Assembly (NCBI GenBank): GCA_964016885.1
Contig: OZ024740.1
Coordinates: 426,932,001-426,996,000, forward strand
DNA: 64,000 nucleotides
From: Eledone cirrhosa
Taxonomy: Eukaryota
Direction: 5' to 3'
The notes below the pieces were generated by a model, which saw only the letters and a program-made list of their open reading frames with translations, had not been told where the DNA came from and made no database searches. A program made the position numbers and the translations under genes. Shown here piece by piece: positions 1 through 26,429 of this stretch (position 1 is the stretch's first letter; the number at the start of each line of letters is the position of its first letter).

Positions 1-268
1 CACACAATTGGTCGTTAAAGTTGAACAACTTGAATATCGTGCAGGAGGATTTAAACCAAATATGTTTTATAAAAGCAAACTCTCACAATGGAAAATACAT
101 AGAAATTGAATCAGTCTAAGAAAATACATATCAAACTTACGATCATTGTCAAATCTGTTAGTAGGGAAAATTCAGTATTAATTTTAACTAACCAGTGAAA
201 TCGGATTGGTCAAAGATCTCCGTATGTCATTCACTATATAGATGTATATAACTGTGTGGTTCTCGTGA

Positions 269-341
269 GGGGAATTAGCTCAGATGGTAGAGCGCTCGCT
301 TTGCATGCGAGAGGTACCGGGATCGACGCCCGGATTCTCCA
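269..341 (+). tRNA. trnA-UGC: tRNA-Ala(UGC)
   Basis: GGGGAATTAGCTCAGATGGTAGAGCGCTCGCTTTGCATGCGAGAGGTACCGGGATCGACGCCCGGATTCTCCA: full cloverleaf, G3:U70, A73, anticodon TGC, T-run terminator at 366-370. Confidence 0.95.
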
Positions 342-426
342 AATGTAGGAGTTATATTACTATATATTTTGATGTTTCTACATTTTACAATTTTCTATTA
401 TTGTTGTTGTTTCTGCTGTTGAATGT

Positions 427-590
427 GATGGATTGGCAGTATCTGTAATCATCAGACAACATGCTTTACAGTATAGAGTTATGGCCCTTTACGTTCCGAG
501 TTAAAATCGCGCCCATGTCAACTTAAAATAAATTAACAATAATGTACTGGGTATTTCACGGCCTTGTTCCAAAAGGAAAAACAATTATAT
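427..590 (+). mobile_element. Decayed, internally deleted tRNA-derived SINE embedded in every array unit (first copy shown)
   Basis: GGATTGGCAGTATC...ATGCTTTACAGTATAGAGTTATGGCCCTTTACGTTCCGAGTTAAAATC...TAATGTACTGGGTAT...GGCCTTGTTCCAAAAG.AAAAACAATTAT aligns by eye with the dispersed SINEs at 27431, 29430, 53331 and 61275. Confidence 0.75.
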
Positions 591-591
591 T

Positions 592-850
592 TGTTGTTGT
601 TGTTGTTGTTGTTGTTGTTGTTGTTGTTGTTGTTGTTGTTGTTGTTGTTGTTGTTGTTGTTGTTGTTGTTGTTGTTGTTGTTGTTGTTGTTGTTGTTGTT
701 GTTGTTGTTGTTGTTGTTGTTGTTGTTGTTGTTGTTGTTGTTGTTGTTGTTGTTGTTGTTGTTGTTGTTGTTGTTGTTGTTGTTGTTGTTGTTGTTGTTG
801 TTGTTGTTGTTGTTGTTGTTGTTGTTGTTGTTGTTGTTGTTGTTCTTCTT
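592..850 (+). repeat. (GTT)n(CTT)m compound microsatellite, one per unit with variable length (first copy shown)
   Basis: Direct. Equivalent tracts lie at about 2041, 3536, 5003, 6310, 7751, 9180, 10480, 11903, 13361, 14832, 16156, 17636, 18908, 20237, 21626, 22917, 24506 and 25808. Confidence 0.99.
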
Positions 851-991
851 CACACCACCAGCATCACGTGACCTACCTGTTAGGAGGGCCGTCAGCAATA
901 GTAATCATAGAACATATAGAATCCGTCCGAGGCCGCCCTTATTATTTACTATATATGTATATATATATTGTAGAGAAACAGACTCATGTGA

Positions 992-1064
992 GGGGAATTT
1001 GCTCAGATGGTAGAGCGCTCGCTTAGCATGCGAGAGGTACCGGGATCGATGCCAGGATTCTCCA
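992..1064 (+). tRNA. trnA-AGC: tRNA-Ala(AGC) variant (A9U, C63A T-stem mismatch), possibly impaired
   Basis: GGGGAATTTGCTCAG...CTTAGCAT...GATCGATGCCAGGATTCTCCA. Confidence 0.8.
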
Positions 1065-1715
1065 TGCGTCAAGATTTCTTTTCAAATATTTTTTCTTCTT
1101 CAAAACTACAGCATCACATGACCATCTTTTGAGGTTGGCTGTCAGTTGTAATCGATAGAAGTTGTAACACAATTGGCCCTTAATTCGTACAGCCTGAAAA
1201 TAGCACCAGACTATTCAACCATATATCTATATATATAAAATATAGGAGGTCTGTTTGTGCAAATCCCTAAAACTCCAGATGTACTCGACTGTCTTTTTTC
1301 AAACTTTACACATATGTTACTTATAATACTTGAAGTGCAATAGGCTAGTAGAAATTTAACTTTTGATGCGATTTTTTCATGTTCAATTATGTAGCATCAC
1401 GTGACCTTCATTTGAACATGTCTCTCGCTATAGTCAATTGACATAATCACACAATTGGTCGTTAAAGTTGAACAACTTGAATATCGCGCAGGAGGATTTA
1501 AACCAAATATGTTTTATAAAAGCAAACTCTCACAATGGAAAATACATAGAAATTGAATCAGTCTAAGAAAATACATATCAAACTTACGATCATTGTCAAA
1601 TCTGTTAGTAGGGAAAATTCAGTATTAATTTTAACTAACCAGTCAAATCGGATTGGTCAAAGATCTCCGTATGTCATTCACTATATAGATGTATATAACT
1701 ATGTGGTTCTCCTGA

Positions 1716-1788
1716 GGGGAAATAGCTCAGATGGTAGAGCGCTCGCTTTGCATGCGAGAGGTACCGGGATCGACGCCCGGATTCTCCA
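1716..1788 (+). tRNA. trnA-UGC: tRNA-Ala(UGC) variant (U7A acceptor-stem mismatch)
   Basis: GGGGAAATAGCTC... anticodon TGC. Confidence 0.85.
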
Positions 1789-23456: not shown

Positions 23457-23528
23457 GGGAATTAGCTCAGATGGTAGAGCGCTCGCTTAGCATGCGAGAG
23501 GTACCGGGATCGATGACAGGATTCTCCA
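23457..23528 (+). pseudogene. trnA-AGC: tRNA-Ala(AGC) pseudogene (one 5' G deleted, C61A and C63A)
   Basis: GAGGGAATTAGC... has only 3 G; ...GATGACAGGATTCTCCA. Confidence 0.75.
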
Positions 23529-24181
23529 TGCGTCAAGATTTCTTTTCAAATATTTTTTCTTCTTCAAAACTACAGGATCACATGACCATCTTTTGAGGTT
23601 GGCTGTCAGTTGTAATCGATAGAAGTGATAACACAATTGGCCCTTAAATTCATACAGCCTGAAAATAGCACCAGACTATTTCAACCATATATCTATATAT
23701 ATAAAATATAGGAGGTCTGTTTGTGCAAATCCCTAAAACTCCAGATGTACTCGACTGACTTTTTTCAAACTTTACACATATGTTACTTATAATACTTGAA
23801 GTGCAATAGGCTAGTAGAAATTTAACTTTTGATGCGATTTTTTCATGTTCAATTATGTAGCATCACGTGACCTTCATTTGAACATGTCTCTCGCTATAGT
23901 CAATTGACATAATCACACAATTGGTCGTTAAAGTTGAACAACTTGAATATCGTGCAGGAGGATTTAAACCAAATATGTTTTATAAAAGCAAACTCTCACA
24001 ATGGAAAATACATAGAAATTGAATCAGTCTAAGAAAATACATATCAAACTTACGATCATTGTCAAATCTGTTAGTAGGGAAAATTCAGTATTAATTTTAA
24101 CTAACCAGTGAAATCGGATTGGTCAAAGATCTCCGTATGTCATTCACTATATAGATGTATATAACTGTGTGGTTCTCGTGA

Positions 24182-24254
24182 GGGGAATTAGCTCAGATGG
24201 TAGAGCGCTCGCTTTGCATGCGAGAGGTACCGGGATCGACGCCCGGATTCTCCA
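24182..24254 (+). tRNA. trnA-UGC: tRNA-Ala(UGC)
   Basis: Intact. Confidence 0.95.
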
Positions 24255-24758
24255 AATGTAGGAGTTATATTACTATATATTTTGATGTTTCTACATTTTA
24301 CAATTTTCTATTATTGTTGTTGTTTCTGCTGTTGAATGTGATGGATTGGCAGTATCTGTAATCATCAGACAACATGCTTTACAGTATAGAGTTATGACCC
24401 TTTACGTTCCGAGTTAAAATCGCGCCCATGTCAACTTAAAGTAAATTAACAATAATGTACTGTGTATTTCACGGCCTTGTGCCAAAAAGTGAAACAATTA
24501 TTTTTGTTGTTGTTGTTGTTGTTGTTCTTCTTCTTCTTCTTCTTCTTCTTCTTCTTCTTCTTCTTCTTCTTCTTCTTCTTCTTCTTCTTCTTTTTCCTCT
24601 TCTTCTTCTTCATCTTCTTCTTCTTCACACCACCAGCATCACGTGACCTACCTGTGAGGAGGGCCGTCAGCAATAGTAATCTTAGAACATATAGAATCCG
24701 TCCGAGGCCGCCCTTATTATTTACTATATATATATTGTAGAGAAACAGACTCATGTGA

Positions 24759-24831
24759 GGGGAGTTAGCTCAGATGGTAGAGCGCTCGCTTAGCATGCGA
24801 GAGGTACCGAGATCGATGCCAGGATTCTCCA
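24759..24831 (+). pseudogene. trnA-AGC: tRNA-Ala(AGC) probable pseudogene (A6G, G52A, C63A)
   Basis: GGGGAGTTAGC...CCGAGATCGATGCCAGG: two T-stem mismatches. Confidence 0.7.
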
Positions 24832-25483
24832 TGCGTCAAGATTTCTTTTCAAGTATTTTTTCTTCTTCAAAACTACAGCATCACATGACCTTCTTTTGAG
24901 GTTGGCTGTCAGTTGTAATCGATAGAAGTAGTAACACAATTGGCCCTTAATTCGTACATCCTGAAAATCGCATAGACTATTTCAACCATATATCTCTATA
25001 TATAAAACATAGGAGGTCTGTTTGTGCAAATCCCTAAAACTCCAGATGTACTCAACTGACTTTTTTCAAACTTTACACATATGTTACTTATAATATATGA
25101 AGTGCAATAGGCTAATAGAAATTTAACTTTTGATCTCATTTTTTCATGTTCAATTATGCAGCATTCACGTGACCTTCATTTGAACATGTCTCTCGCTATA
25201 GGCAATTGACATAATCACACAATTGGTCGTTAAAGTTGAACAACTTGAATATCGTGCAGGAGGATTTAAACCAAATATGTTTTATAAAAGCAAACTCTCA
25301 CAATGGAAAATACATAGAAATTGAATCAGTCTAAGAAAATACATATCAAACTTACGATCATTGTCAAATCTGTTAGTAGGGAAAATTGAGTATTAACTTT
25401 AACTAACCAGTCAAATCGAATTGGTCAAAGATCTCCGTATGTCATTCACTATATAGATGTATATAACTGTGTGGTTCTCGTGA

Positions 25484-25556
25484 GGGGAATTAGCTCAGAT
25501 GGTAGAGCGCTCGCTTTGCATGCGAGAGGTACCGGGATCGACGCCCGGATTCTCCA
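25484..25556 (+). tRNA. trnA-UGC: tRNA-Ala(UGC)
   Basis: Intact. Confidence 0.95.
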
Positions 25557-26056
25557 AATGTAGGAGTTATATTACTATATATTTTGATGTTTCTACATTT
25601 TACAATTTTTTATTATTGTTGTTGTTTTTGCTGTTGAATGTGATGGATTGGCAGTATCTGTAATCATCAGACAACATGCTTTACAGTATAGAGTTATGGC
25701 CCTTTACGTTCCGAGTTAAAATCGCGCACATGTCAACTTAAAATAAATTATCAATAATGTACTGGGTATTTCACGGCCTTGTTACAAAAGTAGAAACAAT
25801 TATTTTTGTTGTTGTTGTTGTTGTTGTTCTTCTTCTTCTTCTTCTTCTTCTCCTTCTTCTTCTTCTTCTTCTTCTTCTTCTTCTTCTCCTCCTTCTTCTT
25901 CTTCTTCTTCTTCTTCACACCAGCAACATCACGTGACCTACCTGTGAGGAGGTCCGACAGTAATAGTAATTATAGAATATATAGAATCCGTCCGTGGCCG
26001 CCCTTATTATTTACTAACTATGTATATATATATTGTAGAGAAACAGACTTATCTGA

Positions 26057-26129
26057 GGGGAATTAGCTCAGATGGTAGAGCGCTCGCTTTGCATGCGAGA
26101 GGTACCGGGATCGACGCCCGGATTCTCCA
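26057..26129 (+). tRNA. trnA-UGC: tRNA-Ala(UGC), terminal copy occupying the AGC slot
   Basis: AGC-type 5' flank (GAAACAGACTTATCTGA), but TGC anticodon, C59 and UGC-type 3' flank (AATGTAGGAGTTATATT). Confidence 0.93.
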
Positions 26130-26429
26130 AATGTAGGAGTTATATTGTTTTGACGAATTTTGTTGCGTTGAAACCATGTTCCTTTGTGCCACTGGAGTTT
26201 GGGCGTTTTGTCGCTTACAAGATTGGGGAACAATGTTAAAAATTACTAGTGTCAATATATAGCATTTTATATCAATATAACATTTAATGCATATATCCCA
26301 GGATAGACTTTGTCCAGTGCCTATTTTTGGTAATAACATAAAACAATTGAGAGATCTAAAACCAAATGTCTGACTCATCAGGGATGCCGGAATATTCAAA
26401 TACAATAACATGCAGTTGTTCAGCCTGTT

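Follow-up and report, generated by a model that had tools for sequence, protein, structure and literature searches.

We analysed a stretch of 64,000 nucleotides of the Eledone cirrhosa assembly GCA_964016885.1 (C1:426932001-426996000, hereafter the window; C1 is contig OZ024740.1, and C3, used below, is another sequence of the same assembly), in which a tandem array of alanine tRNA genes is located. A mismatch scan detected 38 tRNA-Ala genes on the + strand, at 269-26129, and no tRNA-Ala gene on the minus strand of the window. The Rfam tRNA gathering score was exceeded by all 38 genes, and a chance origin is excluded because the scores range from 33.8 to 59.2 bits; ARAGORN reported 37 genes, missing the damaged copy at 23456. 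Twenty genes carry the anticodon UGC and 18 carry AGC, in strict alternation up to the final pair (25484/26057; UGC, UGC), and 11 of the 38 have at least one broken stem pair. The array is a real feature of the assembly. An earlier note on this DNA had described 38 + strand genes alternating between UGC and AGC until the last, and both the mismatch scan and the Rfam score returned the same number. The features of the array are listed below by window position; STR denotes a short tandem repeat and SINE a short interspersed nuclear element.

1..26146, +, 3' half of the tRNA-Ala tandem array (block B), with 38 of the block's 77 genes
269..26129, +, 20 tRNA-Ala(UGC) genes of 73 bases each, starting at 269, 1716, 3212, 4674, 5986, 7423, 8853, 10156, 11575, 13037, 14505, 15832, 17312, 18581, 19907, 21302, 22593, 24182, 25484 and 26057
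992..24831, +, 18 tRNA-Ala(AGC) genes of 73 bases each, starting at 992, 2485, 3947, 5259, 6699, 8126, 9429, 10851, 12310, 13778, 15105, 16585, 17855, 19180, 20575, 21867, 23456 and 24759
17715..19043, +, representative unit of 1329 bases, in the order AGC gene, spacer, UGC gene, repeat remnant, STR
17810..17835, +, TATA-like (TA)n tract before the AGC gene, seen in the sequence
17855..17927, +, tRNA-Ala(AGC) of the major type, with a cloverleaf, G3-U70, intact A and B boxes and a T-run at +15
17953..18386, +, two old internal spacer repeats (17953-18105 and 18238-18386), 67% alike
18541..18562, +, TATA-like tract before the UGC gene, found before dispersed Ala genes too
18581..18653, +, tRNA-Ala(UGC), major type; T4 at +26
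18738..18900, +, what remains of a dispersed SINE-like repeat; similarity to dispersed copies about 68-72%, 3' end adjoining the STR
18901..19043, +, (GTT)n(CTT)m STR of the representative unit, 1 of 19 such tracts in the window
23456..23528, +, damaged AGC copy that lacks the first G, carries C61A and C63A and has no cloverleaf fold
26057..26129, +, terminal hybrid gene; upstream flank AGC-type, 3' end and downstream flank UGC-type, anticodon UGC

The identity of an alanine tRNA lies in an NGC anticodon and a G3-U70 pair, and the consensus of genes transcribed by RNA polymerase III (Pol III) consists of internal A and B boxes and a T-run. The array genes have the cloverleaf, NGC anticodon, G3-U70 pair, A and B boxes and T-run of eukaryotic cytosolic tRNA-Ala. 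The major AGC and UGC types differ at positions 34 and 59 only, and both fold as cloverleaves with G3-U70, the AGC fold having been computed on the identical sequence at 2485. Units in the window measure about 1.3-1.6 kb, contain 35-37% GC and carry one STR tract each. The two internal spacer repeats are likely remains of an earlier module duplication. Each unit contains three copies of the motif GCATCAC(G/A)TGACC, which has CACGTG at its centre; every copy stands behind a T-rich tract (window 855-870, 1110-1122 and 1395-1407), and similar CACGTG-containing motifs recur in older Ala clusters; it may be inherited filler or a factor site.

Extent, probable haplotypes and turnover of the array

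The extent of the array was surveyed over 464 kb, comprising the window and 400 kb upstream. This region holds 188 tRNA-Ala genes in two blocks: block A (C1:426667383-426745528), with 111 genes (56 AGC, 55 UGC), and, 150 kb downstream of it, block B (C1:426894218-426958129), with 77 genes (38 AGC, 39 UGC), of which the window contains the 3' half. The span of 1..26147 proposed in the earlier note was thus correct as to the array but not as to a start at base 1, since 39 further block B genes lie upstream.

The flanking signals are conserved throughout both blocks. As had been claimed for the window, a TATA-like tract (TATA[A/T]A, 15-45 bases upstream) and a run of four or more T (within 26 bases downstream) accompany each gene, in 188/188 cases; the first such run lies at +15 in 92/94 AGC genes and at +26 in 93/94 UGC genes (T4 only). 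The A box is kept in 179/188 genes, the B box in 182/188 and G3-U70 in 185/188, and 131/188 keep all 21 stem pairs together with G3-U70. All stems are kept in 51/94 AGC copies versus 80/94 UGC copies. Because of this inequality the working ratio of the two isoacceptors is not 1:1, contrary to the proposal that the array was amplified at that ratio; we rejected a tuned ratio, as a two-gene unit gives 1:1 by itself, and the equal gene numbers are probably a by-product of the unit.

Both blocks sit in a repeat of about 220 kb, the two copies of which span C1:426586730-426991455. Copy A (426586730-426806367) ends inside a 74-base satellite at a 200-N gap (426806368), and copy B starts straight past the gap, its opening sequence being the one found behind an (AT)n tract in copy A. 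Between the copies, unique stretches near the array (14.4, 12.6 and 2.8 kb) show 0.21-0.24% substitutions, and other repeat segments differ by 0.1-3%. As the join coincides with the gap, between a satellite end and a post-(AT)n start, this assembly pattern indicates that blocks A and B are very probably two alleles placed in tandem by the assembly, that is, an unpurged haplotype overlap. A recent, true 220 kb tandem duplication on one chromosome, by which a haplotype would hold 188 genes, agrees with the tandem order in the assembly and with the 1-3% difference of some flank segments; however, the position of the join exactly at the gap and the nature of its two sides are the usual look of an unpurged overlap, and we consider such a duplication improbable.

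If A and B are alleles, gene dosage would differ by about 40% between them (111 versus 77). The whole window is possibly double-counted in the assembly, and haplotype overlap has likely pushed the tRNA gene counts of this assembly too high. Both blocks end in a hybrid gene, with an AGC-type upstream flank and a UGC-type 3' end and downstream flank, whose anticodon is AGC in A and UGC in B; again if these are alleles, they would differ in anticodon at a single orthologous gene. In Drosophila, changes of anticodon have been documented from one species to another (PMC2997554).

The two assembly copies thereby offer a side-by-side view of array turnover, of STR growth and of this anticodon difference. 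Among 93 aligned units, the mean divergence was 2.3% within block A, 2.1% within block B and 2.3% between the blocks. Units that are almost the same (0-0.5%) reappear every 2-5 units within a block; the first units of A and B are 0.8% apart, and no interior unit comes closer than 0.6% to any unit of the other block. The recurrence, together with the lack of cross-block partners, suggests that each block has amplified its own runs of units, as by unequal exchange. Exchange inside the near-identical gene bodies would also produce hybrid genes and flipped anticodons. The earlier description of a concertedly evolving cassette therefore stands as regards a homogenised tandem array (93 units, about 2.3% mean divergence) and is not supported as regards 1:1 tuning specific to alanine.

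The STR, the origin of the unit and other tRNA arrays

The STR occurs once per unit, between the UGC gene and the next gene. The 19 tracts of the window measure 85-406 bases (median 235), as expected from the (GTT)n(CTT)m tracts of roughly 80-400 bp per gene pair in the earlier note, where the sequence class was rightly given and the pure composition was not, some tracts containing GCT, GGT or GTC runs. One block A unit (C1:426714200-426715470) has (GTC)423 in place of (GTT)n(CTT)m, and a block B unit at C1:426926389 has (GTC)57 inside the tract. Median tract length was 97 in block A (54 tracts) versus 142 in block B (37 tracts; p=0.0002), and within block B 235 in the 3' part versus 95 in the 5' part, a split chosen after seeing the data. 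No significant autocorrelation of STR length between neighbouring units was detected in either block (p=0.34 in A, 0.12 in B).

Each unit contains the SINE-like repeat remnant, and the STR begins at the end of this repeat. Dispersed copies of the repeat gave 130 matches in 56 of 105 non-array stretches (966 kb), a count from which 12 stretches holding or adjoining array units were left out; of 77 dispersed copies that reach the 3' end of the repeat, 5 continue with (ATT)3+. In the first unit of either block an (ATT)n tail persists, with a long interspersed nuclear element (LINE) inserted in it. As the STR starts at the tail of a dispersed repeat, it is best read as a passenger older than the amplification, which would have been seeded at the repeat tail and lengthened by slippage. 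The inserted LINE, of about 6 kb and with a reverse-transcriptase domain, lies within (ATT)n at the STR start of the first unit of both blocks (C1:426668430-426674480 and 426895260-426907270). In block B a second, related element stands beside it, and a further copy, likewise within (ATT)n, is found at C1:426611201.

Relatives of the unit were found elsewhere on C1. The array spacer is shared at 70-81% by two small, mostly decayed Ala clusters (402.31 and 330.37 Mb) and by single genes (402.06 and 315.40 Mb); in the cluster at 402.31 Mb, a (GTT)n(CTT)m tract precedes an AGC-type flank. The unit may thus have grown from local Ala clusters that belong to an older family. Three older tRNA-Ala clusters, in part decayed, were noted at C1:402.311-402.315, 330.373-330.376 and 309.575-309.635 Mb, the last with (GTT)n(CTT)m tracts of its own next to AGC genes.

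In the genome, an exact 29-base Ala core had 200 matches, 178 of them in A and B, and a broader Ala motif had 230 matches, with 187 in A and B and about 43 outside. If A and B are alleles, the array accounts for about two thirds of the Ala genes per allele. An Ala-CGC motif with the arm sequence of the array family had 0 exact genome matches, which does not prove that Ala-CGC is absent; on this count IGC plus UGC may have to read all four codons, in support of the same idea in the earlier note.

The array is one of several large tRNA arrays in the genome. Divergent Glu(UUC)/Asp(GUC) pairs occupy C3:277237224-277419320 with a period of about 1337 bases, corresponding to about 136 units by length. 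The two ends and one middle stretch of this array were read; divergence in a sample was about 1.6%, and a few Glu(CUC) copies and one copy with a UCA anticodon occur near the start. As in the Ala array, one amino acid is represented by two anticodons in an array at C3:235.94-236.16 Mb, where Pro(UGG) and Pro(AGG) genes lie on opposite strands with a core period of about 1912 bases; among the first 100 matches listed of the 157 to a Pro motif, 97 lie in this array. Pro(CGG) copies occur at its far end, and it is followed, from C3:236163089, by a degenerate (CTAACC)n tract of about 6.8 kb that looks like an old interstitial telomere. For Thr, 35 of 40 motif matches fall within 52 kb at C1:243.648-243.700 Mb, in an irregular, partly decayed cluster; more than 70 tRNA-Thr(AGU)-type genes and a few UGU genes were seen there (C1:243648070-243700044), many of them decayed and some with shifted anticodons (ACU, AAU).

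The Ala, Asp/Glu, Pro and Thr genes are thus mostly arrayed or clustered, a Gly motif having given an unclear result, and the proposal of an alanine-specific cassette is not supported. A generic A-box/B-box pattern, possibly unfit for the lineage, had 6 genome matches. A genome search with the Rfam tRNA model gave 16 matches among 63 scored of about 552,000 candidates, which is no census. A dispersed tRNA-like element with long shared AT-rich flanks was also seen on several chromosomes, where ARAGORN called it Ala(GGC), Val, Thr or Asp depending on the copy; it is likely transposon-borne and able to inflate tRNA counts.

Function of the array

Signs of function were sought in the distribution of variants. 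Variants carried by at least 5 of the 93 units were 3/42 in genes versus 56/199 in spacer (Fisher p=0.003). The two inner 5' flanks, taken as the 20 bases that precede the genes, had 20 variants where 9.4 were expected (Poisson p=0.002), the variant count at each gene being reached by 1.2% of spacer windows. Such an excess in the inner 5' flank is strongest at active tRNA genes (PMC6130373). In addition, the major AGC type recurs without change, at 73/73 bases, in the dispersed gene at C1:315.397 Mb, whose upstream flank matches the UGC flank of the array at 245/310; at the rate of that flank, two or fewer differences in 73 bases would have p=7e-6.

These results suggest, at a probability of about 0.65, that the array is a transcribed general-purpose store of tRNA-Ala genes, with weak selection on each copy and a size that changes by unequal exchange. 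Pol III would transcribe at least part of the array in the germ line, and selection would remove damaged copies weakly because the copies are redundant.

Several observations weigh against such a store. The major types make up only 94/188 genes, and distinct variants are not reduced in genes (42 versus 37.3 predicted from spacer). The inner 3' flank shows no excess (6 variants versus 4.7 expected), and the T-stem mismatch C63A is present in 29/93 AGC copies. The p-values are optimistic because the units share descent, and gene conversion, instead of selection acting on the array, could account for the identity with the dispersed gene. The survey of other tRNA genes is moreover thin: Val and Lys motif searches gave 0 matches, with motifs that are possibly unfit for the lineage and hence uninformative. 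Three sequencing runs of one sample (possibly the source) contain 64-68% of the sampled words of the unit and two other organisms contain 20%; no RNA run was listed, and we counted these shares as no evidence.

Alternatively, the array could be a satellite, for the most part silent, that took up a pair of tRNA genes and spread regardless of function, while dispersed Ala genes do the work. This would account for the variants in half of the copies, the unreduced number of variants in genes, the decay of the older related clusters and the presence of about 43 Ala-type genes outside the array, in a region rich in fast-changing satellites; in Drosophila, conserved core tRNA genes tend to sit outside large clusters (PMC2997554). 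However, common variants are depleted in the genes and in excess in the inner 5' flank, the major type has not drifted while the flanks have diverged by 21% from those of the paralogue, and the TATA tract and T-run are kept in all 188 genes. A silent satellite is therefore unlikely.

The silk-gland tRNA-Ala of Bombyx is a precedent for the supply of alanine tRNA to an Ala-rich product. A tissue-specific reserve of this kind would resemble the Arabidopsis Ser/Tyr cluster serving root-cap glycoproteins, which illustrates how tandem tRNA genes that are silent for the most part can become active in a single tissue, with an effect on a protein rich in Ser, Tyr and Pro (PMC12308677), and most Ala genes of the array's family do lie in the array. 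We doubt this role mainly because the tRNA genes of other amino acids are also arrayed: Asp/Glu, Pro and Thr genes occur in similar numbers, so that alanine is not singled out. Furthermore, the AGC type of the array is no special isoform, being identical to that of a dispersed gene; the intact copies are not in a 1:1 ratio, and no Ala-rich product was identified. We regard such a reserve as quite unlikely.

A structural role as a chromatin boundary or organiser, based on Pol III and its factor TFIIIC, has been proposed and argued for the human 1q23.3 tRNA repeat (PMC4041453). The conservation of B boxes in 182/188 genes, more often than that of stems, and the recurrence of the CACGTG-containing motif per unit and in the older clusters would fit this role. 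In contrast, the unit has the low GC content given above and no CpG island, and a boundary would be compatible with tRNA supply; we consider it very unlikely as the explanation of the array. Finally, we rejected the reading of the units as tandem copies of a tRNA-bearing miniature long terminal repeat (LTR) element of the Helenus type, such as occur in molluscs, where they inflated tRNA counts and one family forms tandem arrays (PMC10886601), because 40/40 scored spacer matches (of 999 candidates) lie in A or B, the relatives elsewhere are local gene clusters at 70-81%, and the two genes of each unit have different flanks rather than one repeated LTR.

Known systems and the rest of the window

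Compared with known systems, the general-purpose store proposed above would work most like the human 1q23.3 tRNA repeat. That repeat has 9-43 units per allele, and homogeneous tRNA tandem repeats are uncommon outside Entamoeba (PMC4041453). Both consist of homogeneous head-to-tail tRNA-bearing units, with about 39 and about 56 units here if the blocks are alleles. The human unit is GC-rich and 7.3 kb long, with Leu, Gly, Glu and Asp genes, a CTCF site and endogenous retrovirus (ERV) flanks (PMC4041453), whereas the array described here has an AT-rich unit of 1.3 kb, one amino acid, two anticodons and an STR per unit, and is one of several arrays. As its unit is short and AT-rich, the array is, by this comparison, no homologue of the human repeat.

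Entamoeba arrays likewise have short tandem units with few tRNA genes and spacer STRs, and comprise several arrays with different gene sets (PMC2652664; bioRxiv 10.64898/2026.07.06.736064). In Entamoeba, however, almost all tRNA genes are arrayed and take up more than 10% of the genome, the arrays lie at chromosome ends, and the STRs are complex, with repeats of 7-12 bases and little variation among the units of one isolate (same sources). Here the genome share is tiny, many genes are dispersed and the arrays are interstitial: the Ala array lies 16 Mb from the end of a 442.9 Mb sequence, and the Pro and Asp/Glu arrays lie at 236 and 277 Mb of 378.9 Mb. The STR, of 3 bases, shows many-fold variation from unit to unit and was encountered in the Ala array only; the 10 kb cores sampled from the Asp/Glu and Pro arrays contained none. 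Since the complex STR and the chromosome-end position are lacking, we rejected membership in the Entamoeba type, and an independent origin is inferred. The likeness to Entamoeba through the STR, on which the earlier note had drawn, is superficial, as the STR begins at the tail of a dispersed repeat. A telomere link of the Ala array was also rejected, as no (TTAGGG)5+ run was present in the window or neighbouring stretches.

The Arabidopsis Ser-Tyr-Tyr cluster is another short tRNA unit amplified in tandem in a multicellular eukaryote; it was found to be silent for the most part, with activation in root tips (PMC12308677). Nematostella and teleosts have clusters of at least 50 tRNA genes, in mostly parallel orientation in some species, with mostly heterogeneous pairs in Nematostella and zebrafish (PMC2888827); in contrast, the Ala, Pro and Thr clusters here each serve a single amino acid. 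The terms 'mollus' and 'Lottia' have 0 occurrences in the main text of that paper, and Aplysia was the only mollusc in GtRNAdb in late 2023 (PMC10886601). A literature search by titles and abstract starts, with most subscription papers and the octopus genome supplements outside its scope, found no cephalopod or mollusc nuclear tRNA array, in agreement with the earlier remark that none was known to have been described in cephalopods.

The layout, in which several amino acids each have a large array, is therefore apparently undescribed for the nuclear tRNA genes of octopods. We tentatively raise the possibility, against somewhat unfavourable odds, that octopods keep most tRNA genes in large homogeneous arrays by amino acid (Ala AGC and UGC, Pro AGG and UGG, Thr, Asp and Glu), an Entamoeba-like layout evolved afresh in an animal, with a turnover so rapid that the two alleles of one individual differ by about 40% in gene number and in one orthologous anticodon. 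If this were true, tRNA dosage would be a segregating trait. Such arrays would collapse in short-read cephalopod assemblies. Present evidence indicates no new alanine-specific function, and the part worth following is the occurrence of several large octopod tRNA arrays with strong allelic differences.

The remainder of the window contains a reverse-transcriptase frame at 45643-47385, for which proteins of Octopus sinensis were the closest named relatives, with identities of 85% (59% of the query covered), 71% (75%) and 70% (62%). This transposon protein points to a likely octopod host. Satellites with periods of 74, 41, 32 and 21 bases occupy window positions 54275-59455, 61713-64000, 40762-41281 and 34196-35444, respectively. 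The 74-base satellite has 70 copies in the window versus at least 442 in the matching segment of copy A.

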